In this document: positions 1 through 48,287 of the stretch, in pieces
Layout: each line of letters begins with the position of its first letter
How positions within the stretch are numbered: position 1 is the first letter of the stretch
DNA from: Chloroflexota bacterium
GTDB lineage: Bacteria > Chloroflexota > UBA6077 > JAJPHF01
DNA length: 64,000 bases
Reading direction: 5' to 3'
Assembly (NCBI GenBank): GCA_035294645.1
Contig: DATGKN010000161.1
Location: forward strand, 102,428 to 166,427
The notes under the pieces: model-generated
Told to the model about the DNA's origin: nothing
Databases searched by the model: none
The model's input: the letters and a program-made list of their open reading frames with translations, nothing else
Program-made: the position numbers and the translations under genes

Positions 1-38
1 CGGCCGGGGGCTAGCGCGGCGGTGGCGCGAGGTGCCCC

Positions 39-6694: not shown

Positions 6695-6710
6695 GGCCGA
6701 GGGGGGCAGC

Positions 6711-8069: not shown

Positions 8070-9530
8070 ATGGGCTTGCTACGACGTATCGAGGGCGCGG
8101 GCGCGCCGCCCCCGGCGGCCCCGGCGCCACCCTACGCGGTGCCCGCCACGCCTGCGCCCTCTCCAACCCCACCCCCCCCAGGCGGCAACGGTGCCCAGGG
8201 CCAGCCGCCCGCCGCGCCCCTGCGCACGGGGCTCACCGTCGCTAACCCCACTGCGCGCACCGTAAGCTTGGGGCGCGACCTGAAGATGCGGGTCAAGAAC
8301 CGGCTCATCGCCGAGCTCGACCCCGAGATGGACCTCTCCAAGACCGCCGAGGTGCGGCAGCGCATCAAGATGCTGTTCGACCTGGTGGTGGAGAGCGAGA
8401 ACATCGTGCTCACCCGGGTGGAGCGCGAGCGGCTGTTCGAGGAGGTGACCGCCGACATCATCGGCTTCGGCCCGATCGAGCCGCTGCTGCAGGACCCGAC
8501 CATCAACGAGGTGATGGTCAACGGTCCCAACCAGGTGTACGTCGAGCAGCGCGGGCGGCTGTATCGCACCGACGTCGTGTTCGACGACGACGAACACGTG
8601 CGGCGGATCATCGACCGCATCGTCTCGCCGCTGGGGCGCCACGTGGACGAGGCGTCGCCGCTGTGCGACGCACGCCTACCCGATGGCTCTCGCGTGAATA
8701 TCGCAATCCCCCCGATCTCGCTCATCGGCCCGACGATCACTATCCGGAAGTTCTCCAAGAACCCCCTCGGCATCGACGACCTGATCCGCTTCGGCACGAT
8801 GACACCCGAGATCGCCGAGTTTCTGCGCGCCTGCGTGGTCGCGCGCCTCAACATCGTGATCTCGGGCGGCACCGGTTCGGGCAAGACGACGCTGCTCAAC
8901 GTGCTGTCGTCGTTCATTCCGAACGACGAGCGGATCATCACGATCGAAGATGCCGCCGAGCTGCAGCTGCGTCAGGAGCACGTGGTGCGCCTCGAGGCGC
9001 GCCCACCGAACATCGAGGGCAAGGGCGCCATCACTATCCGCGACCTGGTGATCAACGCCCTGCGTATGCGCCCCGACCGCATCGTGGTGGGCGAGTGCCG
9101 CGGGCGCGAGGCGCTGGACATGCTCCAGGCGATGAACACCGGCCACGATGGCTCGCTGACCACCGCGCACGCCAACAGCCCGCGCGACGTGCTCTCGCGC
9201 CTGGAGACGATGGTCCTGATGGCCGGCATGGACCTGCCCGTGCGCGCCATTCGCGAGCAGATCTCCTCGGCTGTCGACCTGATCGTGCACCAGGCGCGCC
9301 TGCGCGATGGCTCGCGCAAGATCACGCACATCACCGAGGTTCAGGGCATGGAGGGCGACACGATCACCCTGCAGGACGTCTTCCTGTTCGAGCAGGAGGC
9401 CTACGAGAGCGGCAAGGTGATCGGCCGCATTCGGCCCACGGGCGTGCGCCCGAAGTTCATGCCCAAGCTGGAGGACGCGGGTATCCACCTGCCCGCCACG
9501 GTGTTCGGGTTGCCCGACCGGTTCTTCTAG
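8070..9530 (+). CDS. cpaF: Tad secretion ATPase CpaF/TadA (type II/IV secretion NTPase)
   Basis: Walker [10 protein letters not shown] and the VirB11/CpaF family signature, with a Pro/Ala-rich N-terminus. Confidence 0.85.
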
Positions 9531-9545
9531 CCCGAGGGGAGGACG

Positions 9546-10511
9546 ATGGCCCTGCTGTTCGCGGCGCTGCTCGGTGTGGGGATCGTGCTGGCCTTCATCG
9601 GCCTGGAGCGCCTGCTGCGCAACGACGACCCGGCGTTCGAGAGTCGCCTGCGGCGCTATGCCCTGCGCGAGGGCGCCCTGCTCGACGAGCCGTCAGGAGG
9701 GCGTAGCAGCGGCGTGATCACCCGCCAGGTGGGCAAGGCGATCGCCGGCCGCTCGTTCGCCCAGAACCTTCAGGCCGAGCTGGGCCGCGCCGATGTCAAG
9801 CTCACGGCCGCCGAGTTCCTCATCCTGCAGGCTACCAGCACGCTGCTGCTGATGGCCTTCGGCTACGCGCTGGTCAGCTTGCTGTTCAGCCCCAACATGC
9901 TCGCCTTCCCCATCTTTGGCCTGCTTGGCTTCGCGCTGCCCAAGGTGTGGTTGCAGCGCCGCGAGGCCGCGCGGCTGCGGGCCTTCAACGACCAGCTCGC
10001 CGACACGATCATTCTCATGAGCAACTCGCTGCGCGCCGGCATGAGCCTTCTGCAAGCGATGGACCTGGTAGCGCGTGAGGCGACGTCGCCGATCGCCGAC
10101 GAGTTCCAGCGGGTGGTGCGCGAGGTCGGCTTGGGGCTGTCACCGCAGGACGCCCTGCTGCACCTCGTCAACCGGATCCGCAGCGAGGATCTCGACCTGA
10201 TGGTGACAGCAATGCTGGTGCAGCACGAGGTGGGCGGCAATTTGGCGCGCATTCTGGACACTATCGCCCACACCATCCGCGAGCGCGTGAAGCTGAAGGG
10301 CGAGATCCGCACGCTGACCAGCCAGGGGCGCATGTCGGGCTGGATCCTGGCGGCGTTGCCGGTGGTGGTCGCGTCAGTGCTGCTGCTGGTCAGCCCCCAG
10401 TACATGCGGCCGCTGTTCGATATGCCGTACCTGATCTTGCCGGTGCTCGCGGCCATCAGCGTGGTGATCGGCCACCTGGTGATCCAGCGCATCGTGAATA
10501 TCGAGATCTGA
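9546..10511 (+). CDS. tadB: Flp pilus assembly inner-membrane protein TadB (T2SS F domain)
   Basis: GspF-like TM topology. Position immediately after cpaF. Confidence 0.8.
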   Translation: MALLFAALLGVGIVLAFIGLERLLRNDDPAFESRLRRYALREGALLDEPSGGRSSGVITRQVGKAIAGRSFAQNLQAELGRADVKLTAAEFLILQATSTLLLMAFGYALVSLLFSPNMLAFPIFGLLGFALPKVWLQRREAARLRAFNDQLADTIILMSNSLRAGMSLLQAMDLVAREATSPIADEFQRVVREVGLGLSPQDALLHLVNRIRSEDLDLMVTAMLVQHEVGGNLARILDTIAHTIRERVKLKGEIRTLTSQGRMSGWILAALPVVVASVLLLVSPQYMRPLFDMPYLILPVLAAISVVIGHLVIQRIVNIEI

Positions 10512-10512
10512 G

Positions 10513-11457
10513 ATGTCGGTGTTACTCGCGTTCCTGCTGCTCTGCGCCTTCGGCCTGATCTTGCTCGGCCTGGCGCTACCGCTGACGGCCCGGGACCCGG
10601 TCGCCGCCCGCCTGGCACAGTTCGCCGAGCGGCCCCGCACCCTGGAGGAGTTGGAGCTCGAGCAGCCGTTCAGCGAGCGCGTGATCCAGCCGATCATCCG
10701 CAAGCTGGCGCGCTATGCCGAGCGGTTCACCCGGCGCGACAGCGGCCGTGCCCAGCAGCGCCGCAGCGAGCGGATCGAGCGCACGCGCAAGCGCCTGGTC
10801 CTGGCCGGCAACCCGTATCGCTGGACGGTGTCCGACTGGCTGGGCGTGAAGCTGTTCGTGGCGCTGGTCGGCGCTGGGGTGGGCGCGGTGTTCATGCTCC
10901 TGGTAGCCGACCCAACTTTGCTGCCGCTGGGCGCCCTGGCGGGCGGGGTGATCGGCTTCATCGCCCCGGAGTTTTGGCTCAGCCGTCAGATCGCCGCCCG
11001 CCAGAAAGAGATCGTGCGCGCGCTGCCGGATGTCCTCGACCTGCTGACGATCAGCGTCGAGGCCGGGCTGGGGTTCGACGCGGCGCTGGCGCGGGTGGTC
11101 GCCAAGAGCGACAACGCGCTCACCCAGGAGCTGAACCGCGTGATGGCCGAGATGCGCGTCGGCCGCCCGCGGCGCGAGGCGCTACGCGACATGGTGGCGC
11201 GCACCGAGGTGCCCGACCTGGCCAACTTCGTGTCGGCCCTCATCCAGGGCGAGCAGCTCGGGGTGAGCGTATCGCAGGTACTGCAGGTGCAGGCGGAGCA
11301 CCTGCGCGTGGTCCGCCGCCAGCGCGCGGAGGAGCAGGCGCAGAAGGCCCCGCTGAAGATGCTGTTCCCCATGCTCATCTTCATCTTCCCCGCGCTATGC
11401 ATCATCATCCTCGGCCCGCTGTGGCCGGCGGTGGTCAGCATGCGCTGGGGCGGCTAG
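10513..11457 (+). CDS. tadC: Flp pilus assembly inner-membrane protein TadC (T2SS F domain)
   Basis: Second GspF-like paralogue, overlapping tadB by 1 nt. Confidence 0.75.
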   Translation: MSVLLAFLLLCAFGLILLGLALPLTARDPVAARLAQFAERPRTLEELELEQPFSERVIQPIIRKLARYAERFTRRDSGRAQQRRSERIERTRKRLVLAGNPYRWTVSDWLGVKLFVALVGAGVGAVFMLLVADPTLLPLGALAGGVIGFIAPEFWLSRQIAARQKEIVRALPDVLDLLTISVEAGLGFDAALARVVAKSDNALTQELNRVMAEMRVGRPRREALRDMVARTEVPDLANFVSALIQGEQLGVSVSQVLQVQAEHLRVVRRQRAEEQAQKAPLKMLFPMLIFIFPALCIIILGPLWPAVVSMRWGG

Positions 11458-11479
11458 CACCCCACTGGCGGAGAGGAGC

Positions 11480-11947
11480 GTGGAGCGCGCCGAGCCCGTG
11501 CGAGCCACCGCACAGCAGGGCAGCTGGGGGCCGAGGGCCGCTTCGCCCCGGGGGCGGACCGTGCCGCCGTGGTCGCAGGTCCGCGTGGTCAATCTCGACA
11601 CTGGCCAGGAGCTCGCCGCGCGCGTGGCGGTGGCGCGCGCGTTCTGGCAGCGCGCCCGTGGCCTGCTCGGGCGGCGCGCGCTGCCCGAGGGCGAAGGGCT
11701 GCTCATCGAGCGCTGCCGGCAGATCCACATGCTGGGCATGGCGTTCGCCATCGACGTGCTGCACGTGCAACGGCTGTCCGCTACCGAGGGCCGCGTGGCG
11801 CGCGTGCTGCAGGCGATCCGCCCATTCCGCGTGGGCCCGCTAGTGTGGCGTTCGGACTACGTGATCGAGCTGCCGGCGGGTACCGCCACCCGTACGGGCA
11901 CACGGGCCGGCCACCGCATCGCTCTGGAGCCGGTGGAGGAGGCGTGA
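11480..11947 (+). CDS. DUF192 (COG1430) domain protein
   Basis: VVNLDTG...AVARAFWQRARGLLGR...GLLIERCRQIHMLGMAFAIDVLHV matches the DUF192 pattern. Lies 23 nt after tadC. Confidence 0.6.
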   Translation: MERAEPVRATAQQGSWGPRAASPRGRTVPPWSQVRVVNLDTGQELAARVAVARAFWQRARGLLGRRALPEGEGLLIERCRQIHMLGMAFAIDVLHVQRLSATEGRVARVLQAIRPFRVGPLVWRSDYVIELPAGTATRTGTRAGHRIALEPVEEA

Positions 11948-12093
11948 GAGCGCGGGCGGCACACAGCGCAGATCCCCTCGCCAGCGTCGCTGAGCCCCCC
12001 CGCCCTATTTCCCCGTCCCTCACTGGTGGGAGCGAGGCGGGACGGCAAGCGCACCGATCCCCGCAGGCTCAACCGACCGCGGTATCGGCGGCG

Positions 12094-13695
12094 GTGGGGC
12101 ATATCGCGCCCGCCGAGTGGCGCTGGCTTGCCGCGCTGGGCGCGGGGCTCGGCGCCCTGCTGGCGGTGCCCTACGCCGTGTGGCTGCTGGCGGGGCCTGC
12201 CGCGCTGGTCCATATCGGCAGCTTCTGGTACCCGCGCGACTTCATGGTCTACCTGGCGGCCATGCACCAGGGCGCCGAGAGCCCGAGCTGGCTGATCGTC
12301 GACCGCTTCACGCCCGAGCCGCATGCGCCCGTGTTCATGTTCCCCGTGTATGTGGCGCTGGGCAAGCTGGCTGCGCTGCTCCGCGTGCCACTGCTGGCGG
12401 TGTACTACGCTGCCGAGTGGGGCGGGCGGCTGGCACTCCTCGCGGCGCTCTACGGCTTCGCCGCGGCGTTCCTGCCTACCGTCGGGCAGCGGCGGCTGGC
12501 GCTCGGGCTCATGCTGATGGGCACCAACCTGGGCCTTTGGGCGGCGCTCGCGCTGCTGGCGCTCCAGCCCGCCGCGGCATCGCCCGAGGCACTGGCCCTG
12601 GGCGCCAGCCTGGAGGTGACCACGCTCGGGGTCTTCTTGGCGCCACTCCACTTGATGCTCGGCCTGGCCTGCACACTGTGGGCCGTGGCGGCCTATGCGG
12701 CAGCGACCACCCCGGGCGCCGGCGCGCGGGCCTGGCTCGCGCTCACGGCCGCTATCCTTGGCCTCGGGCTGGTCCACCCCTTCAACTTGGCGGTCGTCGT
12801 CGGGGTGTTGGCCAGCCATGCGGCGCTGGAGGGCGTGTCCACGCGCTGCTGGCCGAGCCGCGCCGCCCTGGCGGTGGCCGTGGCCGGCGCGGTAGCGCTC
12901 CCGTTCGTGGCGTACAACTACGCCACGTTTCGCCTGGATCCGTTCTGGAGCGTGGTGTACAGCGCGCAGAACGAGGTGCCCAGCCCTGCGCCACCACGGC
13001 TGCTGATCGACTACGGGCCGGTGCTGTGGCTAGCGCCGCTGGCGCTGCGCGCCTGGCCGCGGCCGTGGTCGAGCCGGCAGCGCTTGGTGCTGCTGTGGGT
13101 GGCGCTGCTGCTCGTGGCGCTGTACGCACCAGTGCCGTTCCAGCGCCGGCTGGCGTTCGGCCTGCAGCCCGGGCTCGCCGTGCTGGCCGCCGCGGGGCTC
13201 GCCTGGCTGGGCCTGCAGCTAGCGCCCCCGGGGCGGCGCCGGCTGGGGATCGCCCTACTGCTCGCCGGGCTGCCCACGGCCGCCTTCCTGTACGCGGGCA
13301 TGGTGCTGTCGGCCGCCACCAACTACCCGGTCGAGGTGTACGCGGCGCGGCGTGACGAATGGGCCGCTGGTGAGTGGCTCGCCGCGCACATGGCGCCCGA
13401 TGAGGTGGTGCTAGCCACCGAGGAGAGCGGGTTCTGGCTGGCCGCGTTGGTGCCCGGCCGCGTGTTCCTGGGCCACAAGGGGATCACCTACGACGTGGCC
13501 GACAAGCGCGCGGTGGTCGACGCCGTGCTGACCGCCTCGCCCGGGGAGGTCGCCCGGATGCTCGCCGCCCATGGCATCCACTACCTGTACTACGGCCCGC
13601 GCGAGCGTGCCCGCGGGCCGCTGGCGGAGGCACCGGGCCTCGTGCTGGTGTACCAAACGCCCGAGGTGGCGATCTACCGCGTGGCGATACGGTAA
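12094..13695 (+). CDS. Large multi-pass membrane protein, possible GT-C-like glycosyltransferase
   Basis: About 12 TM helices plus a soluble C-terminal domain. The in-frame ORF runs from 11569 but overlaps the DUF192 gene in another frame. The start is placed at GTG 12094, before the first TM helix, and is uncertain. Confidence 0.45.
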   Translation: MGHIAPAEWRWLAALGAGLGALLAVPYAVWLLAGPAALVHIGSFWYPRDFMVYLAAMHQGAESPSWLIVDRFTPEPHAPVFMFPVYVALGKLAALLRVPLLAVYYAAEWGGRLALLAALYGFAAAFLPTVGQRRLALGLMLMGTNLGLWAALALLALQPAAASPEALALGASLEVTTLGVFLAPLHLMLGLACTLWAVAAYAAATTPGAGARAWLALTAAILGLGLVHPFNLAVVVGVLASHAALEGVSTRCWPSRAALAVAVAGAVALPFVAYNYATFRLDPFWSVVYSAQNEVPSPAPPRLLIDYGPVLWLAPLALRAWPRPWSSRQRLVLLWVALLLVALYAPVPFQRRLAFGLQPGLAVLAAAGLAWLGLQLAPPGRRRLGIALLLAGLPTAAFLYAGMVLSAATNYPVEVYAARRDEWAAGEWLAAHMAPDEVVLATEESGFWLAALVPGRVFLGHKGITYDVADKRAVVDAVLTASPGEVARMLAAHGIHYLYYGPRERARGPLAEAPGLVLVYQTPEVAIYRVAIR

Positions 13696-17512: not shown

Positions 17513-18382
17513 TCAATCGAGCGGGGCGGGCGCGCCGCGCGGGCCCGCCAGCTGGGCGATGCGCCGCCGGGCACGGCGGAGATCGGCGTACAGCCCGCTG
17601 AGCACGAACAGGCCAGCGGCGACCAGCACAACCGTGGCGCCCGAGGCGACATCGAAGAAGTAGCTCAGGTAGATCCCGGCCGCCCCACATAGCGCGCCGA
17701 TAGCGGTGGACAGCAGCATCATACGGCCGAAGCTATGGGTGAGCTGCCGCGCGATCACCGCAGGGATCACCAGCGCGGCGGCGATAAGGGTCACGCCCAG
17801 CACCTGCATCGAGGCAACGATGGTAGCCGCCAGCACCAGGGCGAGGAGCGTATCCATCCATGCGGTCGGCACCCCATGCACCTCTGCCACCTCGGGGTCG
17901 AACGTAGCGAACAGCAGTGGCTTGTAGGCGCAGAACACCGCCATCCCACAGCCCACGGCCGTGGCGGCCACCACCAGCAAATCCTCGCGGGCGACGCCCA
18001 GCACGTTGCCGAACAGCGCGGCCTCGAAGTTGGTGGTGAACTGGCGAGCGTGACTGATGATCGCCACGCCGAGGGCGAAGCTGGCGGTCGTCACGATGCC
18101 GATGGCGGCATCCGCCCCGATACGGCGCCGGCGCACCGTCTCGTTGATCAGCAGGGCCGAGAGCACCCCCCACACGCTCGCCGCGAGGTAGAAGTTGAGG
18201 TGCAGCACGTAGCCGAGCACGGCCCCGCCGAAGATCGAGTGTGACAAGCCGTGCCCGATGTAGCTCATGTGCCGCAGTACCACGTACACGCCCACCAGGC
18301 CGCACAGCCCGCCCGCCAGCACCGCCGCGAGCAGCCCACGGGTGAAGAACTCGTAGCCGAACGGCTCGACCAGGTTCGGCAT
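17513..18382 (-). CDS. Metal ABC transporter permease (ZnuB/MntB/TroD family)
   Basis: ABC-3 family TM pattern. ATGA overlap with the upstream ATPase gene. Confidence 0.8.
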   Translation of the reverse strand: MPNLVEPFGYEFFTRGLLAAVLAGGLCGLVGVYVVLRHMSYIGHGLSHSIFGGAVLGYVLHLNFYLAASVWGVLSALLINETVRRRRIGADAAIGIVTTASFALGVAIISHARQFTTNFEAALFGNVLGVAREDLLVVAATAVGCGMAVFCAYKPLLFATFDPEVAEVHGVPTAWMDTLLALVLAATIVASMQVLGVTLIAAALVIPAVIARQLTHSFGRMMLLSTAIGALCGAAGIYLSYFFDVASGATVVLVAAGLFVLSGLYADLRRARRRIAQLAGPRGAPAPLD

Positions 18383-19248
18383 CAGGAACTCCGCCGGCTG
18401 GGCGATTCCTGCACGGCCGCGGCAGGCGTCGTGGGCCAGGGGTGGTCGATCACCACCGCCACGTCGCCCTCGCGCACGACGCGCAGCGGGGCGTTGTACA
18501 GCCGCGAGAGCACCTCGTCGCGAAACACGACCGAGGGCGGCCCGTGGGCGATGACCGTGCGATTGAGACACACGAGGTAGGGCAGGTGCGTGGCCACAGC
18601 GTTCAGCTCATGGGTGGACAGCACGATGGTGGTCCCCTGCGCTTGAAGCTCGGCCAGCAGGTGGAGGATCTCGTGCCGCGTGCGGATGTCGACGCCACTA
18701 GTCGGCTCGTCGAGCAGCAGCAGGCGGGGCTGGCGGAACAGGGCGCGCGCCAGGAACACTCGCTGCTGTTGGCCGCCGGAGAGCTCGCGAATGTGGCGCC
18801 GCTCTAGCCCCGCGAGGCCCAACCGCGCCAGCAGCACGCGGGCCTCGGTGCGCGCGCGGCGGCTCGTCCAGGGCCAGGGGCCTAGCGCCATGGCGCGCCC
18901 CATCAGCACCACTTCCTCGACGGTCACCGGGAACGACCAGTCCACCGTTTCCACCTGCGGGACGTAGCCCAGCAGCGCGCGGCAGCGGCCGACCGGCTGG
19001 CCATCGATCAGGACCATGCCCGCCACGGGCTTGACCAAGCCCAGCGCCGCTTTGAGGAACGTGGTTTTGCCGGAGCCGCTGGGCCCGACTAGCCCCACCA
19101 GCTGCCCAGGCGCGATGCGCAGCGTGATGTCCTGCAGGACCGGGGGCCCATCGTAGCTGCAAGTGACCCCGCGGAACTCCAGCTGCACCCCGCGCGGGGC
19201 AACCGCGCCATCGTCGCCCCACGGCAGGGAACAGAGCCGCTCAGCCAT
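18382..19248 (-). CDS. Metal ABC transporter ATP-binding protein (ZnuC/MntA family)
   Basis: Walker A GPSGSGKTT, LSGGQQQR signature and Walker B LLLDEP. Its start overlaps the cbtA stop. Confidence 0.8.
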   Translation of the reverse strand: MAERLCSLPWGDDGAVAPRGVQLEFRGVTCSYDGPPVLQDITLRIAPGQLVGLVGPSGSGKTTFLKAALGLVKPVAGMVLIDGQPVGRCRALLGYVPQVETVDWSFPVTVEEVVLMGRAMALGPWPWTSRRARTEARVLLARLGLAGLERRHIRELSGGQQQRVFLARALFRQPRLLLLDEPTSGVDIRTRHEILHLLAELQAQGTTIVLSTHELNAVATHLPYLVCLNRTVIAHGPPSVVFRDEVLSRLYNAPLRVVREGDVAVVIDHPWPTTPAAAVQESPSRRSS

Positions 19249-20014
19249 ATCGCGATGGCAACGGGGGCGAGGCCAGCGGGCCACCACCAGCCCGCGCGGG
19301 GCCAGCGGCCCGGCTGCCGCGCGCAAGCAGCAGCCCGAACACAACGCCCAGCACCCCCCACAGCACGCCCTGGCCAGCCAGGCTCGCCACGCGGAAGGGC
19401 ACGACGATGTCGGCTGGCAGCGTCACCGGGTCGGGAGGAGGCGGCATGACCAGCAGGAGCACCGCGGCGTAGACCGCATACGCTCCCACGGCGCCGGTCA
19501 GCGCGGCGCGCCCACCGCGTGCCCGCAGGAGCTGATACACGCCGCTAGCCACCACCAGGCCGCCGAAAGACAGAACCCAGAACAACAGGAACAGCGCCTG
19601 GCGGGAGCCGATAGTCTCCGGGTCGCCCACCCCAGGAGGGTTGGCCGGGTATTTCAGCAGGGGCAGCAGGCCGATCAGCCAGCCGACGATCAGCGCGGCC
19701 AGCAGCCCGTTGAGCCCTGGGCCCACGCGCGGCAACTGCGGGCGCACGAGCGCGCATCCTGCGCCCAACAGTAGGCCCAGGAAGGCCCCGTATAGCACCG
19801 AGCCGATCAGCAGCCCCACGCGCTGCATCTCCCGCGTCACTACCTCGGGCTCGGGTGCGAGGCCCTCCGCAGCGTGGTGGGCCGCTTCGAGCGCGATCGC
19901 CCGCTCGATGAGCGGCTCGGAGAGCAAGAAGTGGAACAGGCCGAAGACGAGGCCCGCTACTAGCCCCGCTCCCACAGCGGCGAGCACGATGGTCCGGGTA
20001 CGCAAGCCGGTCAC
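19241..20014 (-). CDS. cbtA: Cobalt transporter subunit CbtA
   Basis: About 250-aa 5-TM protein with an N-terminal His-rich loop (EAAHHAAEG). Lies immediately after cbtB, downstream of a B12 riboswitch. Confidence 0.7.
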   Translation of the reverse strand: MTGLRTRTIVLAAVGAGLVAGLVFGLFHFLLSEPLIERAIALEAAHHAAEGLAPEPEVVTREMQRVGLLIGSVLYGAFLGLLLGAGCALVRPQLPRVGPGLNGLLAALIVGWLIGLLPLLKYPANPPGVGDPETIGSRQALFLLFWVLSFGGLVVASGVYQLLRARGGRAALTGAVGAYAVYAAVLLLVMPPPPDPVTLPADIVVPFRVASLAGQGVLWGVLGVVFGLLLARGSRAAGPARAGGGPLASPPLPSRYG

Positions 20015-20092
20015 GCGGCCCTCCTAACTGCCCCGGCGCGGCGCGAGCACCTGGCCGGGGGCAATCCACAACCCCATCCACCAGCGCCGGCC

Positions 20093-20399: not shown

Positions 20400-20580
20400 G
20401 TCCACGAGCGCGCGCGAAGCAAACGGCAGGTGCAGGCGTTCTGGCTCGCTCGCCAGCGGCGAGCATACAGCTGCGGGTCAGCGCCGGCCTCACACCGGAC
20501 TTTCCCTGCACGGCCCTGCTCGGGCCAGACCTGCCGGGCAGCAGCAGACTGCCAGCGCCGTTATACCATCCGCGCCTCTC
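20400..20580 (-). ncRNA. Cobalamin (AdoCbl) riboswitch in the 5' leader of cbtB
   Basis: The minus-strand RNA contains GCAGGGAAAGUCCGGUGUGAGGCCGGCGCUGACCCGCAGCUGUA, which fits the GGGAA..GGUG.GA..CC...CCCGC.ACUGUA core. About 60 nt downstream sits a B12-box-like AGCCAGAACGCCUGCACCUGCC. Confidence 0.6.
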
Positions 20581-24318: not shown

Positions 24319-24432
24319 GGAGCGGGACGACCCGCTTGCCCCGCCGGAGCAAACCGGCTACCCTCGCCAGTGCCGCGCGGCGTCGCGGCCCCGGCGCGGC
24401 GTGGTCCACTTGCCTGTGAGGAGGTGCCACCC

Positions 24433-25395
24433 ATGGAGCCCCTACCGCGCGGCGCCCAGTTCATCCGCGCGAAGATGCTCTGGGAGATCGCCCTGCACAT
24501 CGCCGGCGACCCGAACGAGCCGTACTACGGCAACCGCGACATCTGCATCACGGTCGGCAGCGGCTCGGGCGAGCGCTATAAGCCGTGGCTGCGCCTGTCG
24601 GTCGGCTCGCCCATCCTCGCCCACGCCGTGGTCCGCGGCGAGCTCGACTTGGCGTTCGTGAACCCTTCCGGCTGTCTTACCCAGATGTATCGCGGTACGG
24701 GCCTGTTCACCGCCCCACTGCCCGTACGCCTGGTGGCTTGCTACCCCTCGTGGGACCGCTACGTCCACTGTATCCACCCGCGCACGGGGCTGACCTCGCT
24801 GGCGCAGATCAAGGAGCGCCAGTACCCGCTGCGCCTGTCGATCCGCGAGGACCCGACCCACTCCACGCGCGTGCTACTCGACCAGACGCTGGCCTGCTAT
24901 GGCTTCACGCTCGACGACATCGTGCGCTGGGGCGGCTCGCTGCAGCTCAACGGCGGCCCGGGTGACCCGCGCCGGATGCGCGCGCTGCATGCCGGCGAGA
25001 TCGACGCCATCTTCGACGAGGGGCTCGTGCTCTGGTTCGACGAGGCGCTGGCGGCCGGCATGCGGCCCATCCCGCTGGAGGATGAGGTGTTCGCCCGGCT
25101 TCAGGCGCTCGGCTGGCGCCGCGTTACCATCCCCGCTGGCCGCTTCCCGCACCTGACCGAGGACCACGACTGCCTCGACTATAGCGGCTGGCCGCTGTAC
25201 ACCCGGGCCGACCTGCCCGACGAGGTGGCCTACCGCGTCTGCGATGCCATCGCGGCGCGCGCCGACGAGATCCCCTGGGAGCAGGGCGCTTTTACCGGGC
25301 TCGACCAGCTCGGCCGCGATACCGAGGCCACCCCGATCGACGTGCCGCTGCACCCCGGCGCCGAGCGCTGGTACCGCGAGCGGGGCTACCTCTAG
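24433..25395 (+). CDS. TAXI-family TRAP solute-binding-protein-like protein lacking a signal peptide
   Basis: FVNPSGCLTQMYRGTGLF...LRLSIRED...LLDQTLACYGFTLDDI resembles the TAXI SBP core. GAGGAGG SD. Confidence 0.45.
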   Translation: MEPLPRGAQFIRAKMLWEIALHIAGDPNEPYYGNRDICITVGSGSGERYKPWLRLSVGSPILAHAVVRGELDLAFVNPSGCLTQMYRGTGLFTAPLPVRLVACYPSWDRYVHCIHPRTGLTSLAQIKERQYPLRLSIREDPTHSTRVLLDQTLACYGFTLDDIVRWGGSLQLNGGPGDPRRMRALHAGEIDAIFDEGLVLWFDEALAAGMRPIPLEDEVFARLQALGWRRVTIPAGRFPHLTEDHDCLDYSGWPLYTRADLPDEVAYRVCDAIAARADEIPWEQGAFTGLDQLGRDTEATPIDVPLHPGAERWYRERGYL

Positions 25396-25458
25396 CGCCC
25401 CGAGCGCCCCACGCGGCGTGGCACCCCCGCGGAGCGGGCGGGACCTTCCCACCCGCTC

Positions 25459-25716
25459 CTACGCTCGGTCCGGCACGCGGATGTAGAAGCGCAAGGTCGG
25501 GCCGTCCTGGTGCTGCGCCAGCAGCTCGTAGCCATGGCGCGGCGCTTCCAGCGGAATGCTGTTCACCGACTGGGGGCAGTCGGTGATGACCTCCAAGACC
25601 GCTCCCGGCGGGAGTTCAGCCAGCGCTTCCAGCGCGGCCACAGCGGGGTACGGTCAAGGCTCGCCCTGCACGTCGAGGCGATGCGTCGGCACAATCCGCT
25701 CGGGCTCAGCGGCCAT
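25459..25716 (-). CDS. TusA/YedF-like sulfur(selenium)-carrier protein with in-frame TGA at the CPxP active-site Cys position (candidate selenoprotein)
   Basis: The ATG at 25716 overlaps the yedE 3' end. Translation gives MAAEPERIVPTHRLDVQGEP-[TGA at 25654-25656]-PYPAVAALEALAELPPGAVLEVITDCPQSVNSIPLEAPRHGYELL...FYIRV, which aligns residue-for-residue with E. coli TusA (HTLDALGLRCPEPV...PGETLLIIADDP...). Confidence 0.5.
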
Positions 25717-26953
25717 GCACCACACCCTCGCGCAGCTGCGGCGCCGGCACGGCCACCGCCTGGAGACCATGATAGGTGGTGCGCGCCTCCCACCAGGCCA
25801 GGAACAGGTAGGCGGCCAGCAGCAGGCCGTAGGTGATCAGCAGGCCCCCCAGCCAACCGAACTGCTCGACCAGGTACACTTTCGGCCAGGGCGCGACCAG
25901 CGCGGCGTACAGCCCCAGGGCATCCCAAGCCCAGGCAAGCAGCGTGGCGCCGAGGATGTTGCCCACGCCCACGACCCAGAAGTGCACCTGCCCCTCCATC
26001 GAGCGGTACATCCAGCCGGTCTCGCAGCCGCCCGCGATGACGATGCCCAGCCCGAACAGCAGGCCGCCGATGGCCGCCCCAGGGCTTAGCCAGAATACCT
26101 TCGGCGCGACCCCGAGCTGCATGAACGCCGCGGTGCCGATCGCACTGGCCGCCATGCCCAGTACCAGCGCCTTCGCCATCGTGGCGCGCCCAGTGACCCA
26201 CAGATCGCGAAACGCCGAGGTGAAGCAGATCTGGCCACGCTCGATCAGCACGCCGAACGCCAGCCCGAATAGGCCCGCGATGCCGAGCTTCGGCTGGCCA
26301 GTGGCTACCACTAGGGCGACCAGCGCGAAGCCCGCGCCGACGAGTACCCCGAGCCCCGGCTGCCATCGCCGTGCCCGCGACGGCGCCGGCTCCTCCCCAA
26401 CCACCGCAGTCGCTCGCACCCGCTCGGCCCGTGCATCACCGCGCAGCCACGGCTGGAGCACCAGCTTCACCCCCAGGTAGGTGCCGAGCGCGGTCCCGAT
26501 GGTGAATACCCAGGCGTGCAGCGAGAACTGCGGGATGCCCGTGAAGAACGCGGCGAGGTTGCACCCCATGGCCAGGCGCGCGCCGAAACCGGCCAGCATG
26601 CCGCCGACGAGGGCTTGCACCAGTCGCCGGCCGTGGCGCACGCGGCGCAGCTTCACGTTCTCCGCTAGCAGCGCCGCCGCCAGCGCCCCTGCGAACATGC
26701 CGAAAACTACCCAGCCGTCCACGCGGTCCCACGGCAGCCCCTGCAGGCCGATCACCTGGAAATAGCCCCAGGTCTCGGGATGCAGGCCTGCCAGCTGCAG
26801 CAGGTGGCCGCCCCAGCGCGTGAACTCACCCGTTACTGCCCAGAAGGTGCCCGTCAGCCCAAAGTAGTAGGCACTCAGCACCCCCGCGGCCACTACGGCC
26901 GGGGTCGGCGCCCAGAAGCGGACCAGGACCCGTTGCCGCCACTGCTCCCACAT
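25706..26953 (-). CDS. yedE: YedE/YeeE-family membrane transporter (putative selenium/thiosulfate uptake)
   Basis: Two internal repeats carrying GARLAMGCN and IAGGCETGW motifs. ATG with a GGAGGAGGGG SD. Confidence 0.8.
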   Translation of the reverse strand: MWEQWRQRVLVRFWAPTPAVVAAGVLSAYYFGLTGTFWAVTGEFTRWGGHLLQLAGLHPETWGYFQVIGLQGLPWDRVDGWVVFGMFAGALAAALLAENVKLRRVRHGRRLVQALVGGMLAGFGARLAMGCNLAAFFTGIPQFSLHAWVFTIGTALGTYLGVKLVLQPWLRGDARAERVRATAVVGEEPAPSRARRWQPGLGVLVGAGFALVALVVATGQPKLGIAGLFGLAFGVLIERGQICFTSAFRDLWVTGRATMAKALVLGMAASAIGTAAFMQLGVAPKVFWLSPGAAIGGLLFGLGIVIAGGCETGWMYRSMEGQVHFWVVGVGNILGATLLAWAWDALGLYAALVAPWPKVYLVEQFGWLGGLLITYGLLLAAYLFLAWWEARTTYHGLQAVAVPAPQLREGVVHGR

Positions 26954-27033
26954 CGCCGCGTCCCCTCCTCCGGATAGATGCTCATAGCTGGTATAGCACA
27001 AGATAATGCCAGGAGGGGCCGGGCAGCGGGCGC

Positions 27034-27618
27034 TCACTGCACGGTGAGATACTCGCGCACCCGCTCGTAGGTCGCGCGGGGCAGCAGGCGCGCGTCGCGC
27101 AGCTGCTCCACGGCGGTGAAGGGGCCGTGCTGCGCGCGGTACTCCAGGATGCGCCGCGCCAGCGCCGGCCCGATGCCGGGTAGCGCATCGAGCTCGGCGG
27201 CCGTGGCGGTGTTGAGGTTGACGCGCGCGGGGGGGGCGGCCGGGGCGCGGGCCCGCTCGGTGGCCGCGGTCGGTGTGGCGACGGCCTCGCCGAGCTGGGG
27301 CACGCGTAGCCGCTGGCCATCGGTCAGGCGAGCCGCGAGGTTCAGCGCCGTGAGGTCGGCGTCGTCCGCCGCGCCCGCGGCCTCGACGGCATCGGCCACG
27401 CGGCTGCCCGCCGGCAGGGCGTACACGCCGGGCTGGCGAACGGCCCCCACCACGTGGACTTGTACGGTGGGAGGCGCGGCGCTGCTGGCCACCAGCTGCA
27501 CCGGCGGGGCGGCCGGGCGCTGGAGCAGTGGCACGGCGAGCGCCACGGCGGCACCGAGAGCGGCCACGAGCAGCACGCCCGCTAGCCAGTTGCGGCCGCG
27601 CTCGACCAGCTCCTCCAC
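27034..27618 (-). CDS. comEA: ComEA-like helix-hairpin-helix DNA-binding protein
   Basis: N-terminal TM helix and C-terminal VNLNTATAAELDALPGIGPALARRILEYR HhH motif. Confidence 0.75.
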   Translation of the reverse strand: MEELVERGRNWLAGVLLVAALGAAVALAVPLLQRPAAPPVQLVASSAAPPTVQVHVVGAVRQPGVYALPAGSRVADAVEAAGAADDADLTALNLAARLTDGQRLRVPQLGEAVATPTAATERARAPAAPPARVNLNTATAAELDALPGIGPALARRILEYRAQHGPFTAVEQLRDARLLPRATYERVREYLTVQ

Positions 27619-27637
27619 GACGCGCTGCTCCGCAGGG

Positions 27638-28729
27638 CTACTGGTACGGCCCGAGCTGCGCCGCCGCGTACTCGGCGAAGCTGGAGTCGACCACGCTGTC
27701 CACTGTCTGGGCGCCGGTGTAGTAGCCGCGCTGCCGGTAGTAGTCCAGCTCGATCTGCATGCTGGCCCGCTGCAAGCGACCGTCGGGGTCTAGGCCGGCC
27801 ATGTTCATGCGGTCGTACACGGCGGGATCCTTGAGCGGGGTCTCGCGGGCCAGCACGCGGATCACGTCGGCGCGCCGGACGCCCTTGCCGAAGGCGTCGT
27901 TGTATACGCGCACGCCTTGGAGATAGGCGATCATGAACCGTCGGGCCAGCTCTGCCTGGGCGATGAAGCGGTCGGAGAAGTACAGCACCCCGGCCTGGTA
28001 GGGGCCGTTGAACGCCACGCTGGTGTAGCCAGGCTCCCAGGGCGCGACGAGGTGGCGGTCGACCGCCGCACTGAGGGTCGGCTCGATGAGCACGCCCCCG
28101 TCGATCGCGCCGTTGGCCAGTGCCGTCAGCATGTCGGGGTAGCTCAGCACCGTCAGGTCCACGTCGTCGACGGTCAGGCCGCCCTGGAGCAGCACGCGGG
28201 CGGCGATCGCCTCGGCCCCCGAGCGCAACGAGGCTACACCGAGCCGGCGGCCGCGCAGGTCAGCCGGGGTGCGCACCGCGCCGCTCTCGATCAGGTCGCG
28301 GCGCACCGGCAGCTGCGAGAATTCGAACCCCGGTCGCGACTGCCCCTTGTCGGCGACGATCTTGATGCCCACGCCGCGGTCCACCGCGTTGAGCACCGCC
28401 AGGTTGAAATTCCCGCCGCCCACCTCCAGTTCGCCGCTGCCCAGCGGCGCGATCACGTTCGGGCCACTGTCGAAGGGCAGCGTCTCCACCTCGATGCCCT
28501 GGGCCTGGAAGAACCCCCACTCCCGCCCGAGGAACACGCCGGCGTCGGAGACGGCCTGGGGGGAACCGAAGCGCACCCGGCTCAGTTGTGGCGCGGGCCC
28601 CTCGGCGGCAGCCGCCCGTGGCGGCGGGCCGTCCCAGGGCCAGGAGGCCGCCAGCAGCCCCCCAAGAAGGGCGGCGAGCACGACGGCGCACGACCGCCAG
28701 CGCCGTAGGCCGCTAGGTAGTAGCGTCAT
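27638..28729 (-). CDS. NMT1/SsuA-like ABC-type solute-binding protein
   Basis: Paralogue of the 13763 SBP (GIEVETLPFDSGPNVIAPLGSGELEV...DLRGRRLGVAS). Signal peptide. Confidence 0.75.
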   Translation of the reverse strand: MTLLPSGLRRWRSCAVVLAALLGGLLAASWPWDGPPPRAAAAEGPAPQLSRVRFGSPQAVSDAGVFLGREWGFFQAQGIEVETLPFDSGPNVIAPLGSGELEVGGGNFNLAVLNAVDRGVGIKIVADKGQSRPGFEFSQLPVRRDLIESGAVRTPADLRGRRLGVASLRSGAEAIAARVLLQGGLTVDDVDLTVLSYPDMLTALANGAIDGGVLIEPTLSAAVDRHLVAPWEPGYTSVAFNGPYQAGVLYFSDRFIAQAELARRFMIAYLQGVRVYNDAFGKGVRRADVIRVLARETPLKDPAVYDRMNMAGLDPDGRLQRASMQIELDYYRQRGYYTGAQTVDSVVDSSFAEYAAAQLGPYQ

Positions 28730-32956: not shown

Positions 32957-33907
32957 TCAGTACGCCGCGCGGTGAGTGGCTTTCAGGCGCGCCAGAAGAT
33001 GGTCACCCGCGCGCACCGGTGGATACCGTGGCGGGCGCGTCGCGCTCTGGCAAGTCGGTAGGGGCGCCACCACGGTGTCGGCGCTGGGGGAGTGGAACAG
33101 CACCACCGAGTAGCGCGCCCGCGCGGCGGCCGGCCCGGAGGGCACGGCCACGCGGTGGGGGGACGAGCGAAACCGCCCGTTGGTCCAGCGCTCCAGGAGG
33201 TCCCCAGTGTTCACGATCGCCGCCTCGGGCCGCGGCGGCACCGGCAGCCACGTCCCGTCCGCCAACTGGATCTCCAGGCCGCCCGCGGCGTCGTTGAACA
33301 GCAGGGTCAGCGCGCCGAAGTCGGTGTGGGCCCCCGCGCGCAACTGGCCCGGTGGGGGCGCTCCTGCTAACGGGGGGTAGTGCAGCAAGCGCACGGTGCT
33401 CAGCGGCCGGGCGAAATGGGGCGCGAAATAGGCGGCTGGCAGGCCCAGCGCGCGGGCCATGGCGGCCAGTAGCCGATCACCGGCGGCCCGCGCTGCATCG
33501 TAGAAGGCCAGCACCGCCGCGCGCAGCGCCGGTAGCTCGGGCGGCCAGCGATTGGGCGGCGCATCAGGATGCTCGGGGCCGGCCTGGAAGATCTCCTTGA
33601 GGTCCCATAGGCGCGTCGTGTCGAGCGCCTGGGAGGTCAAGCCGCCGTAACCGCGATTGGTGGCCGCGCTCTGCCAGCGCACGGCTTCCTTGGCCGCCGG
33701 CGGCAGCGCGAAGAAGGTGCGGGCCGCGGCGAACACGCCCTGCAGCACCTCGACCGGAACACCGTGGTGCCGCAGGTAGAAGAACCCGTGCTGTTCCAGC
33801 GCCTCGCCCAGCGCGGTGCACGCTGGCGTCTCCCCCCGCGCGCAGGCGCCTAGATCGATGACCGGAATGGGCGGCTGACGCGTCGCTACCCGCTCGTCCG
33901 TTGGCAT
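32957..33907 (-). CDS. 2-oxoglutarate/Fe(II)-dependent oxygenase (IPNS-like)
   Basis: DIOX_N-like N-terminus (IPVIDLG). HxD...H triad region GAHTDFGALTLL...SSPHRV. GAGGAGGG SD. Confidence 0.75.
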   Translation of the reverse strand: MPTDERVATRQPPIPVIDLGACARGETPACTALGEALEQHGFFYLRHHGVPVEVLQGVFAAARTFFALPPAAKEAVRWQSAATNRGYGGLTSQALDTTRLWDLKEIFQAGPEHPDAPPNRWPPELPALRAAVLAFYDAARAAGDRLLAAMARALGLPAAYFAPHFARPLSTVRLLHYPPLAGAPPPGQLRAGAHTDFGALTLLFNDAAGGLEIQLADGTWLPVPPRPEAAIVNTGDLLERWTNGRFRSSPHRVAVPSGPAAARARYSVVLFHSPSADTVVAPLPTCQSATRPPRYPPVRAGDHLLARLKATHRAAY

Positions 33908-34192
33908 CGGGCCCTCCTCGCCGCGCGACCCACGCGGCACATTGGCGTCAGCTCACGGCCGTCGCCAAGCCGACATAGCCAGTATGGCGCCTGGGAGCCG
34001 CCCCGTCGCTGGGCGTGGCGCCCAGAGCCCACCCGCAGCGAATCGTGCGCGCGGTACATGGTCCAGCGCGGGCACGGTCCCTACGCTGGACAGCGAGACG
34101 CGGGGGTACGGGCGCCGGTTGCGCGCCCGCGACGGCCCGCGCCTGTCGCGACGCACGCTGCGCCCCAGCGTGCCACAAAGGGGGATGATACG

Positions 34193-35287
34193 GTGAACGC
34201 CCGTCTAGCTCGTGTCGCGTGCGCGCTGCTGAGCGTCCTGCTCGCGGGCTGCACGGCCCGCGCCGCCCCGGCGAGCGACCGGCCGGCCGCGGTCGCCCCG
34301 CTGTCGCCGAGCACCCCACCGGCGAGCCCGGCGGCCGGCGGGCTGGCGCTGACCAAGCTCAGCTACGGCCACGACTGGTTGATCCAGGGCCACGCCGCGC
34401 CCGTGTTCGTGGCGCAAGACAAGGGCTACTTCGCCGAGGCGGGCCTAGAGGTGACGATCGGCCGCGGCTACGGCTCGGCCGACGCGGCCAAGCGCGCGGC
34501 AAGCGGGCAGACCGACATCGTGCTCGGCGATACCGCGACCGCGATGCTGCTGCGCGCCAACGAGGGAGCGTCGATTAAAGCGATCGCGCCCCACTACGAC
34601 GTCGCCCCGCTGGCGATCGTGGCCGGCGAGGAGGCCCATGTGCGGAGCCCCAAGGACTTGGAGGGCAAGACGATCGCGGATGTGGCGGGCTCCTCGCCAC
34701 GCCTGCTGTTCCCGGCTTTCGCCGCGCTGGCTGGCTTCGACGCCAGCAAGGTCGCCTGGCAGACCGTCGACCCGGCCGTGCGCGATACCCACCTAGCGGC
34801 GGGCCAGGTGTCGCTCGTGGGCGGGTTCTTGTCCAACGTGCCGCTGATCGAGGCCATGGCCCGCCAACAGGGCAGCGATCGCCCCTTCACGGTGCTGCGC
34901 TATGCCGACTATGGCTTCGAGATGTACGGCAACAGCTACCTCGCGGCCGACCGGCTGATCGCCGAACGCCCCCAGGTGCTGAGCGCGTTCGTGGCGGCGC
35001 TCGCCAAGGGCATCCGCGATACCTATCGCGACCCCGCCGGGGCGGTGGAGATCCTCCGCAAGAGCCATCCCGAACTGGATCCCGAGACGAGCATCCGTCA
35101 GATCGAGATCGCCCGCGATACCATCATCACCGACCACACCCGCAGCCAGGGCCTGGCCGTATTCGACGAAGCGCGGATGCAGAAGACCAAAGAGCTCGCG
35201 CAGCAGTACCTAGGCCTGCAGCGCGACCTGCCGCTCGCCGAGTTCTACACCGCCCAGTTCCAGCCGGCGCCGCCCGTATTGCCGTAG
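34193..35287 (+). CDS. NMT1/SsuA-like ABC-type solute-binding lipoprotein
   Basis: GTG start with an AGGGGGA SD. Lipobox LLAGCT. SsuA-family body. Confidence 0.75.
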   Translation: MNARLARVACALLSVLLAGCTARAAPASDRPAAVAPLSPSTPPASPAAGGLALTKLSYGHDWLIQGHAAPVFVAQDKGYFAEAGLEVTIGRGYGSADAAKRAASGQTDIVLGDTATAMLLRANEGASIKAIAPHYDVAPLAIVAGEEAHVRSPKDLEGKTIADVAGSSPRLLFPAFAALAGFDASKVAWQTVDPAVRDTHLAAGQVSLVGGFLSNVPLIEAMARQQGSDRPFTVLRYADYGFEMYGNSYLAADRLIAERPQVLSAFVAALAKGIRDTYRDPAGAVEILRKSHPELDPETSIRQIEIARDTIITDHTRSQGLAVFDEARMQKTKELAQQYLGLQRDLPLAEFYTAQFQPAPPVLP

Positions 35288-39774: not shown

Positions 39775-41094
39775 CTAGCTCGCGCCGGCGCCCAGCGGCG
39801 CGGTCGGGTGGAACTGGGCCGCCTCGGTCGAGCCCGCCAGCGCCGTGGTCGAGGCCGCGCCGCCCGTCGCGGCCAGCAGCACCTCGTCGAAGTAGCTGGC
39901 ACCCGCCTCGCGCTGGTGGCGCACGGCGGTGTAGCCCGCGAGCTCCAGCGCGAACTCGCGCTCCTGCACGCGCACGTAGGCGGCCATGCCCTCCGCCGCG
40001 TACTCGCGCGCCAGCTCGAAGGTGGTGAGATTGACCAGGTGCCAGCCGGCCAGCGTGATGAACTGGAACTTATAGCCCATCGCCGCCAGCTCGCGCTGGA
40101 AAGCGGCGATCTGCTCGGGCGAGAGGTGGCGCCGCCAGTTGAACGACGGCGAGCAGTTGTACGCCAGCAGCTTGCCCGGGTAGCGGGCGTGGATCGCCTC
40201 CGCGAACTGGCGCGCCTCGGCGAGGTCCGGGGTGGCCGTCTCGCACCACAGCCCGTCGGCATACGGCGCGTAGGCCAGCCCACGGGCGATCGCCGCCTCC
40301 ATGCCCGGGCGCACCACGTGGTAGCCCTCGGGTGTGCGCTCACCGGTGAGGAACTCGCGGTCGCGGGGGTCGATATCGCTGGTGAGGTAGGTGGCGGCGT
40401 GGGCATCGGTGCGGGCGAACAGCACCAGCGGCACATCGAGCACGTCGGCCGCCAACCGCGCAGCGTTGAGCACCCGGATGAACTGGCTAGTAGGCACCAG
40501 CACCTTGCCACCCAGATGGCCGCACTTCTTCTCGGCGGCCAGCTGGTCCTCGAAGTGCACGCCCGCGGCGCCCGCCTCGATGAACGCGCGGGTTAGCTCG
40601 TAGGCGTGGATCGGCCCGCCGAAGCCGGCCTCGCCGTCGGCAACGATCGGCACCAGCCAGTCGCGGCTCGGGCGGCCCTGCTCGGCCCACTCGATCTGGT
40701 CGGCGCGCAGCAGCGCGTTGTTCAGGCGGCGCACCAGCGCCGGCCCGCTGTTGACGGGGTAGAGGCTCTGGTCGGGGTAGGTATGGCCGGCGAGGTTGGC
40801 ATCGGCTGCGACCTGCCAGCCGGAGAGATAGATGGCGTCGAGGCCGGCGCGCACCATCTGCACGGCCTGCGCGCCCGTGTAGGCGCCGAAGGTGCGCACG
40901 GCGCCGTCGCTCTGGAGCTGCCGCCACAGCCGCTCGGCGCCACGCCGCGCCAGCGTGTACTCGATGCGGACCGAGCCGCGCAGGCGCACCACATCGGCGG
41001 CGGAGTAGTCACGCCGAATGCCCCGCCAGCGGGGCGCGGTGCGCCACCGCTCCTCGAGCGCCTGCTCCTTAGCTGCGTGGTCGACGGTCGTCAT
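39775..41094 (-). CDS. aceA: Isocitrate lyase
   Basis: KKCGH active-site motif and full-length ICL similarity. Confidence 0.9.
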
Positions 41095-41346
41095 CCCTTC
41101 CGCCTCCTTCCCCTGGTACTGGGCGCCGCGCGGGCCATCCCGCAGGCCAGCACGGACGCGAGACAAACTCTCCCCTGTCCCCACGGCGAGGGCTCTCGCT
41201 GTTGGCGCATTCGCCCCGGCGGGCGCCGTCCGCCCCGCCGCCCGAGCTAGGGGGGGACCGCTGTATGGCTCACGCGCGGCCGCCGTGAACGGCCGGCCCA
41301 GCGTTCAGGCTGCCGGTGGCCCGCCGGGTTCCCACGGTGCAGCGTT

Positions 41347-42939
<1,593 letters not shown>

Positions 42940-43210
42940 GGCATCCTCCTCGCTTGGCAGCGTACGCTTCCCGCGCGAGCGGCTCCCCGCGCCGTGTCGG
43001 CGGCTACTCGTGCTCGTGGTCGAGCCGGCACCACTCCGGGCAGCCACACTCGGTGGCCTCGCTGCGAGGCCCCGGTCGGTGCCACGGCGGGGCCGCCGGC
43101 TGGCCCGTGTCACGCTCGACGGTCAGCAGCTCGCGTTCCCGTTGTCGCCCATCGTACATCGGTCGCCTCCCGCGTACACTAGCTTGTCCACAGTGTAGTG
43201 CCGTACCATT

Positions 43211-43241: not shown

Positions 43242-43384
43242 ATAGACGGCGCCTATCATGGCGGCCGCGGAGCGGCTGATATAGGGCGCGGCTATCGCCA
43301 ACGCGCGAAATTTCTCTGTTGACGGGCCGGTGGGGGGCCGGGTAGCATCGGGCCATCCCCGGCGCGCCACCGGCCGGTCACGAG

Positions 43385-45510: not shown

Positions 45511-45521
45511 GGGCCCTCCGC

Positions 45522-48134: not shown

Positions 48135-48287
48135 GATTGCAGCCCCCCTCTGCACGCGCGCCCTCCGGCGCGGTACCCGCCCGGCCCCCGGCGGTGTACC
48201 AGAACCATACCGCACCAGGCCGTCCCCGCGAAGGGAAAAACGCCGGCGCGTGGCCGGGCCATCGTCGCACAGGTGCGCGCCCGGGGG

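Follow-up and report, generated by a model that had tools for sequence, protein, structure and literature searches.

Can a stop codon that falls exactly on the catalytic cysteine of a small sulfurtransferase-like protein be read as selenocysteine (Sec)? The question is raised by a 64,000-nucleotide (nt) stretch of a Chloroflexota genome (assembly GCA_035294645.1, contig DATGKN010000161.1, positions 102,428 to 166,427; this whole stretch is hereafter called the window). On its minus strand, a gene for a YedE-family membrane protein is followed by a short reading frame with an in-frame TGA. An earlier note on this DNA had described the short frame as TusA-like along its whole length and had proposed it as a candidate selenoprotein gene. 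We find it likely that in this two-gene operon of a soil Chloroflexota bacterium, yedE-yedF (also named fdhT-fdhU), the UGA at the catalytic Cys codon of YedF is read as Sec. This reading draws support from the conservation of the UGA, purifying selection upstream of it, a conserved ribosome-binding site and start codon, and a downstream hairpin that fits the bacterial selenocysteine insertion sequence (bSECIS).

We identified both genes by curated family models. The yedE open reading frame (ORF) has 415 codons, from the ATG at 26953 to the stop TGA at 25706-25708, and a Shine-Dalgarno site, GGAGGAGGGG, lies at 26962-26971, 8 nt ahead of the ATG. Its product reaches 552.5 bits with NCBIfam NF033796 ('selenium metabolism membrane protein YedE/FdhT', selen_YedE_FdhT; cutoff 350) and 160 bits against Pfam Sulf_transp. 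It aligns to the YeeE structure 6LEO and retains the three relay-cysteine motifs GQICF, AGGCETG and AMGCN. The yedF frame runs from the ATG at 25716-25714 to the TAG at 25459-25461. Its translation is MAAEPERIVPTHRLDVQGEP up to the TGA at 25654-25656 and PYPAVAALEALAELPPGAVLEVITDCPQSVNSIPLEAPRHGYELLAQHQDGPTLRFYIRVPDRA beyond it, the latter starting with PYPAVAALEAL and ending with RVPDRA. With NCBIfam NF008242 YedF (cutoff 79), the product reaches 116.6 bits when Cys is substituted for the stop, and with Pfam TusA 73 bits. Over 75 residues it aligns with Escherichia coli YedF (PDB 1JE3; 102 bits, about 60% identical), whose GEPCPYP Cys lies opposite the stop, so that the earlier placement of the TGA at the catalytic CPxP codon is confirmed by both the translation and this alignment. 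The second motif of the family, DCPQS, is also present (TDCPQSVNSIP), and is DCLQA in L033 and L035. The CPxP cysteine that characterizes YedF/FdhU is replaced by TGA, and we therefore filed the gene as a Sec variant of NF008242 and not as a standard member. The gene is directly 3' of yedE also in L001, L002, L014, L033 and L038.

Three related identities were tried and discarded. Against the models of the thiosulfate pair YeeE/YeeD (TsuA/TsuB), NF041048 / NF041049, the scores stay far below the cutoffs (32.3 against 147.5 for TsuB and 61.9 against 645 for TsuA). TusA proper, of the tRNA 2-thiouridine sulfur relay (NF001423), reaches 28 bits against a cutoff of 78, only the fold-level Pfam TusA model being matched. 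The two-domain YedF (TIGR03527), in which a TusA-like domain is joined to a DsrE-like domain with CGxC, reaches 21 bits against 110, and our product is the TusA-like domain alone. By the NCBIfam cutoffs, the pair is thus YedE/FdhT-YedF/FdhU, neither generic TusA nor YeeE/YeeD. The whole-length likeness to TusA that had been claimed stands at the level of the fold, while the family is YedF/FdhU.

We collected homologues and orthologues of yedF to compare the codon in question. A search of 5.8 billion proteins retrieved about 150 full-length homologues; all of them have Cys in the column opposite the UGA, and none is annotated with U. TGA-bearing orthologues were sought via shortened protein hits and by two DNA-pattern scans for GE[PA]-TGA-PYPA. 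In the scan of genome contigs, one of 27 matches was a real yedF and the other 26 were chance matches, whereas a longer pattern used on metagenomes gave four matches, all of them real. For the species of the window, the identical TGA is found in four independent assemblies, namely the window itself, the Logan assembly of SRR24677604 (L005; yedEF 99.7% identical), JGI 3300005524 (L036/L041; 100%) and JGI 3300062133 (L040; 99.9%). The homologue comparison suggested in the earlier note gives a clear picture beyond the species too: TGA occupies the same codon in six distinct lineages, that is, the window, L014/L034 (Chloroflexota metagenome-assembled genome (MAG) HOG27, JADGHJ01; 87% nucleotide identity to the window over yedEF), L001 (73%), L002-L004 (72%), L033 (70%) and L035 (78%, over a match of only 216 nt). 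No further stops or frameshifts were found in yedF of these six lineages. TGA is also the ordinary stop of 17 of the 38 Pfam-supported genes in the window, including yedE, which excludes a general reassignment of the codon. Judged from these comparisons, the TGA in yedF is neither an error nor a product of decay.

The region upstream of the UGA also has the marks of a translated sequence. In the eight codons right before the UGA (RLDVQGEP), the proportion of synonymous differences (pS) among the six Sec forms is 0.57 and that of nonsynonymous differences (pN) is 0.04, giving a pN/pS of 0.07. For the 58 codons 3' of the UGA, pN/pS is 0.27. All six Sec forms have a GGAGG-like site 6-9 nt ahead of a start codon that overlaps the yedE stop, and this start lies 18-20 codons upstream of the UGA. 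The overlap of 11 nt between the end of yedE and an ATG-initiated frame, as described previously, is what direct reading of the sequence shows (ATGGCCGCTGA); the same overlap exists in two of the lineages, and the other four have an 8-nt one, GTGTCTGA. The Cys-type relatives L037 and L039 share this layout of ribosome-binding site and start codon. These patterns indicate that the region 5' of the UGA is translated and that its codons are under strong purifying selection.

Public databases hold only shortened versions of this gene. For the window, the public call is 25459-25641, 60 amino acids (aa) from a GTG (HLI29062.1, P0002, 'sulfurtransferase TusA family protein', from a Chloroflexota MAG), just the truncation that the earlier note had described. 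Among the calls that we found for this clade in NCBI, JGI, ENA and Logan, all are shortened to 52-67 aa. The starts chosen by the gene callers differ and are not conserved (V26 in P0002 and P0035, M35 in P0059), and no Shine-Dalgarno site was seen ahead of them. Because gene calls are shortened in this way, Sec-type YedF is missed by current annotation.

We examined the RNA downstream of the UGA for a bSECIS element. The published bSECIS criteria (PMC13188914) are an apical loop of 3-9 nt with a G in its first two positions, an upper stem of 4-16 base pairs (bp), a distance of 16-37 nt from the UGA to the loop, a minimum free energy of at most -7.5 kcal/mol, and the loop pattern N1-G-[G/U]-N-N2. 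The hairpin at 25619-25638, GCCGCGC-UGGAA-GCGC(U)GGC, agrees with all four published criteria, with a U-G-G-A-A loop, a 7-bp stem, a distance of 22 nt and a single-sequence folding energy of -13.1 kcal/mol. Across the six Sec forms the energies range from -10.6 to -14.3 kcal/mol, and the loop is UGGAA, UGGAU or UGGAG (always UGGAN). In the alignment of the six sequences, the seven stem pairs are formed in 95% of cells, against 21-52% in controls with the 3' strand shifted by 1-3 columns. L033 and L035 have a compensatory change from C-G to U-A, in which one strand carries an Ala-to-Val replacement and the other a synonymous GCG-to-GCA change. In L002, a continuous helix of 7-8 bp is retained through a register shift. 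The Leu codons in the stem (+8 and +11 from the UGA) are CTG in 6/6 Sec forms; at other Leu codons, 9-11 of 10-15 pairs show a difference. Every one of the six Sec forms has Ala or Val as residue +7. A motif search matched 143 Cys forms, of which 135 have Thr there, 4 Ser, 3 Ala and one Met; a Thr codon at this position would disrupt the stem. The hairpin is not formed in three Cys-type genes (L037, L038 and L039). The CUCCCGCCGGGAG hairpin pointed out earlier, about 40 nt past the UGA, does exist (25602-25614, 39 nt after the UGA). It was rejected as the SECIS: its sequence is lost in L001, L002, L033 and L035, and at about 44 nt from the UGA its loop falls beyond the range of 16-37 nt. The conserved hairpin at 25619-25638 is the candidate instead.

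Other explanations of the interrupted frame can be weighed against these data. If a TGC-to-TGA nonsense mutation or a miscall had inactivated yedF, the upstream frame would be a relic. Only one base would have to change, every public gene call treats the TGA as a stop, and no Sec machinery was seen in the window. However, the identical TGA in four independent assemblies speaks against a miscall, and its retention across six lineages whose nucleotide identity goes as low as about 70%, with the rest of the frame intact, speaks against decay, as do the pN/pS values of 0.07 upstream and 0.27 downstream of the UGA and the conserved ribosome-binding site and start codon. A single recent clone is excluded by the 13-30% DNA divergence among the six sequences. 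Loss of function or error is thus barely credible, and the fallback offered earlier, a pseudogenised tusA partner of yedE, is rejected on the same grounds of codon conservation, selection and a conserved start. The frame could also be expressed in two parts, with a leader peptide of 20 residues that stops at the UGA and, apart from it, a C-terminal protein of 52-67 aa that lacks CPxP. In several lineages there are indeed in-frame GTG or ATG codons past the UGA, which the gene callers use, but these lie at differing positions without a Shine-Dalgarno site. Judged from the alignment with 1JE3, such a C-terminal protein would be a TusA fold without strand 1 and without its active-site cap, and the supposed leader is the conserved RLDVQGEP strand of YedF, under strong purifying selection. 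We regard two products as very unlikely. Selection on both sides of the UGA, the conserved ribosome-binding site and start, the non-conserved downstream starts and the use of TGA as an ordinary stop together lead us to reject the pseudogene, sequencing-error and two-peptide explanations.

The conserved frame on both sides of the UGA would also follow from read-through that does not use Sec machinery, in which a leaky stop or decoding by a near-cognate tRNA (for Trp, Cys or Arg) would give a low level of full-length YedF with an ordinary residue at position 21, possibly keeping the protein scarce. A Sec machinery sought in the 64-kb window alone and a thermodynamically unexceptional hairpin would suit this explanation. 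Against it, Trp or Arg in place of a catalytic Cys that is invariant in about 150 homologues would abolish the very function under selection. It also leaves unexplained the hairpin at SECIS distance with its G-containing loop, the compensatory change, the frozen synonymous sites, and the Thr-to-Ala/Val change confined to the UGA forms. We consider Sec-independent read-through unlikely.

Several observations weigh against the decoding of this UGA as Sec. The hairpin is no more stable than shuffled GC-rich sequence (z of -0.2 to -1.1; the sequence is 71.5% GC), and part of it consists of GCG CTG, the most frequent Ala-Leu codons. A single evolutionary event in six sequences underlies the covariation, and 34 of 500 shuffles reach its score. 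No Rfam family was found at the yedF region, where a permissive search of 25440-25760 gave only chance-level matches. As the stability is not significant against shuffles, the case for the hairpin is one of conservation and not of energy. No tRNA gene, including that for tRNA-Sec (selC), was found in the 64-kb window, and six-frame motif searches of the window gave no SelD, SelB or SelA signature. In gene content the window resembles an aerobic heterotroph, and selenoproteins are less common in organisms with this lifestyle. Moreover, direct handling of selenium by YedF is argued from the C. jejuni fdhTU work, as described in papers that cite it, and from co-occurrence with SelD, and not from a direct experiment in any organism. 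Sec decoding is known in Chloroflexota, where Dehalococcoidia MAGs with 46-49 selenoproteins and also Sec-type hydrogenases have been described; these belong to lineages other than that of the window. Our confidence in Sec decoding is good and goes no higher, because the search for Sec-insertion genes covered the 64-kb window only and the Sec-decoding Chloroflexota are different lineages.

If the UGA is read as Sec, expression of the pair could proceed as follows. Ribosomes completing yedE would re-initiate at the overlapping yedF start and meet the UGA twenty codons later. The hairpin 15 nt past the UGA, with its UGGAA loop, would recruit SelB with Sec-tRNA(Sec), and Sec would be inserted to give the full 84-residue YedF. 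By analogy with the YeeE-YeeD thiosulfate system, YedE may hand a selenium compound along its three conserved cysteines. Sec21 of YedF would then serve as the 'fourth' relay residue, capturing the selenium species at the cytoplasmic exit of YedE, and YedF would deliver selenium on toward selenophosphate synthesis. The conserved Cys47 (in DCPQS) of YedF is a possible resolving residue. We infer the SelB-dependent decoding, the selenium substrate and the relay chemistry from these comparisons and from two published links of YedE/YedF to selenium, the co-occurrence with SelD (PMC5322559) and, according to citing papers, the control of formate dehydrogenase activity by C. jejuni fdhTU.

Comparison with known systems places the pair more precisely. 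E. coli YedF (1JE3; NF008242, 'sulfurtransferase-like selenium metabolism protein YedF') is likewise a single TusA-fold domain with GEPxPYP and DCPQS, encoded directly after yedE. It differs in having Cys at CPxP, while the window gene has the UGA, the downstream hairpin and the stem-building Thr-to-Ala/Val replacement. FdhT and FdhU of Campylobacter jejuni belong to the same two families (NF033796 is named YedE/FdhT, and the YedF homologues include Campylobacter proteins such as P0040). Papers citing the C. jejuni work describe them as accessory proteins that control the activity of the selenocysteine-containing formate dehydrogenase. Their effect is reportedly selenium-dependent, to go by the title of Shaw et al. 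2012. Unlike the window gene, C. jejuni FdhU has Cys (GEACPYP), and the window locus has no formate dehydrogenase or other selenoprotein gene nearby. Indeed, no selenium-related, formate dehydrogenase or other selenoprotein gene was found among the 40 Pfam-annotated ORFs of the window.

The YeeE/YeeD system (TsuA/TsuB; PDB 6LEO, 8K1R and 8J4C) also combines a homologous three-cysteine membrane protein with a TusA-fold partner. There, thiosulfate is relayed over the three YeeE cysteines and captured by the CPxP 'fourth cysteine' of the docked YeeD at the cytoplasmic exit (PMC11073785). YeeE/YeeD is the best mechanistic model for the window pair. The differences are that the window pair falls far below the TsuA/TsuB cutoffs, presumably has a selenium substrate in place of thiosulfate, and has a proposed Sec acceptor. 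A Sec-containing YeeE/YedE-family transporter with GUxSG was listed in a 2026 catalogue (PMC13188914). It belongs to the same pathway family and has Sec in place of a relay cysteine, but its Sec is in the membrane protein, whereas the window membrane protein keeps all its cysteines and Sec is proposed for the soluble partner. Sec-type SelD and the rhodanese-like selenoproteins, which are catalogue entries too, resemble Sec-form YedF in that they act in selenium/sulfur trafficking and have Sec for a nucleophilic Cys; their folds are unrelated and their reactions different. Sec-type SelD sets a precedent: it serves selenium supply and itself cannot be made without selenium.

A neighbour-joining tree of YedF places the six Sec forms in one clade, although a tree of about 75 residues is weak. 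In the same tree, the Cys-type P0007/L037 is nested in the Sec clade or sister to it, beside Cys forms from Anaeromyxobacter and MAGs. This topology fits a single Cys-to-Sec change in one Chloroflexota lineage. In L037 (333-1615), the nearest Cys-type relative (P0007), a second TusA-family gene and a DsrE-family gene come after yedF, which suggests a longer sulfur/selenium relay in that lineage. There is no entry for TusA, SirA, YedF or PF01206 in the 2022 catalogue of 87 prokaryotic selenoprotein families (PMC9312934), and none of TusA/YedF type in the 2026 catalogue of 119 selenoprotein families (PMC13188914) or in the text of the BSepDB paper. Lin et al. 2015 treated the CPxP motif of YedF as a cysteine motif only. 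The Sec form is probably best described as YedE/YedF with a recoded active site or, equally, as a new family of selenoproteins in which, as is usual, Sec stands for Cys; the mechanism itself is not new in kind.

The routes by which selenium enters bacterial cells and reaches selenophosphate synthetase are unsettled, and among transporters none has been established as specific for a selenium species; for uptake, the foremost candidate is YedE/YedF, on comparative grounds only. A natural Sec-for-Cys replacement at CPxP singles out this residue of YedF as the one that does the chemistry. Taken with the Sec form reported for the transporter, the replacement indicates that Sec can sit at different positions of the same relay. 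We suggest, tentatively and with more doubt than belief, that the Sec acceptor makes YedE-YedF a selenium-selective group-translocation system and a positive-feedback switch, YedF being the first TusA-fold selenoprotein. If so, the selenolate would trap incoming selenium as an Se-Se (or Se-S) adduct to which a thiol acceptor would be ill suited, and selenium would be discriminated from the far more abundant sulfur at the acceptor site of YedF. The carrier would also need selenium for its own synthesis, so that uptake capacity would rise only once some selenium is available.

Table 1. Coordinates of the yedE-yedF locus within the window.
Feature	Position	Strand	Description
yedE/fdhT	25706..26953	-	415-aa YedE-family membrane protein, putative selenium-compound channel
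yedF/fdhU full frame	25459..25716	-	85 codons including one in-frame UGA; TusA-fold carrier, 84 residues
yedE stop / yedF start overlap	25706..25716	-	11 nt, ATGGCCGCTGA; read directly; probable translational coupling
yedF Shine-Dalgarno-like GAGGGTG	25723..25729	-	6 nt 5' of the yedF ATG, inside the end of yedE
UGA, proposed selenocysteine codon	25654..25656	-	residue 21, U of GEP-U-PYP
Bacterial-SECIS-like hairpin	25619..25638	-	7-bp stem, bulged U, apical loop UGGAA at 25627-25631; starts 15 nt after the UGA
Stem-loop	25431..25459	-	13 bp, perfect or G-U; starts at the last base of the yedF stop codon, between convergent genes

The stem-loop after yedF is more stable than expected by chance: the fold of 25396-25465(-) has -46.9 kcal/mol (z = -2.8; 2 of 200 shuffles as good). 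It has no U tail, and a consensus terminator scan gave no call there. No consensus promoter or terminator was found by scanning 25300-27700. The structure is probably a transcript end of the factor-independent, high-GC type or an mRNA stabiliser. Four genes for NMT1/THI5-like periplasmic binding proteins exist in the 64 kb, at 24370-25395 (+), 27638-28729 (-), 33854-35287 (+) and 55928-57256 (-). Two of them flank yedEF, and the flanking synteny is retained in L040 and L041.

We also scanned the window for other TGA-interrupted genes. The single match is a TGA at 44575 (+) between open frames of 254 and 346 codons, and its peptide resembles an antisense artefact; the same filter missed yedF itself. 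A gene filter based on the GC content of third codon positions (GC3) left no ORF in 44342-45521 or at about 13.7-16.2 kb. Long high-GC3 ORFs without a Pfam match (E <= 1e-4 to 1e-5) occur at 11458-13695 (+), 15-1406 (+) and 47715-48968 (-), with lengths of 745, 463, 190 and 226 aa. Other neighbours in the window are genes for a ComEA-like protein and a PabB-like enzyme, a Tad pilus cluster, cobalt transport genes and glyoxylate shunt genes. The Tad/Flp-type pilus cluster (5729-11457 (+)) encodes an RcpC/CpaB-like protein, a response-regulator-ParA fusion, a T2SSE ATPase and two T2SSF membrane proteins. The glyoxylate shunt genes, for isocitrate lyase (39775-41304 (-)) and malate synthase (41347-43122 (-)), are divergent from a LysR regulator gene (43346-44341 (+)). 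The sole Rfam match of the window at the gathering threshold is a cobalamin riboswitch (RF00174, 43 bits) at 20414-20547 (-). It lies upstream of genes for a cbtB/cbtA cobalt transporter and of ABC-3/ABC_tran genes (17513-20023 (-)), and the locus looks like a B12-controlled cobalt uptake operon.

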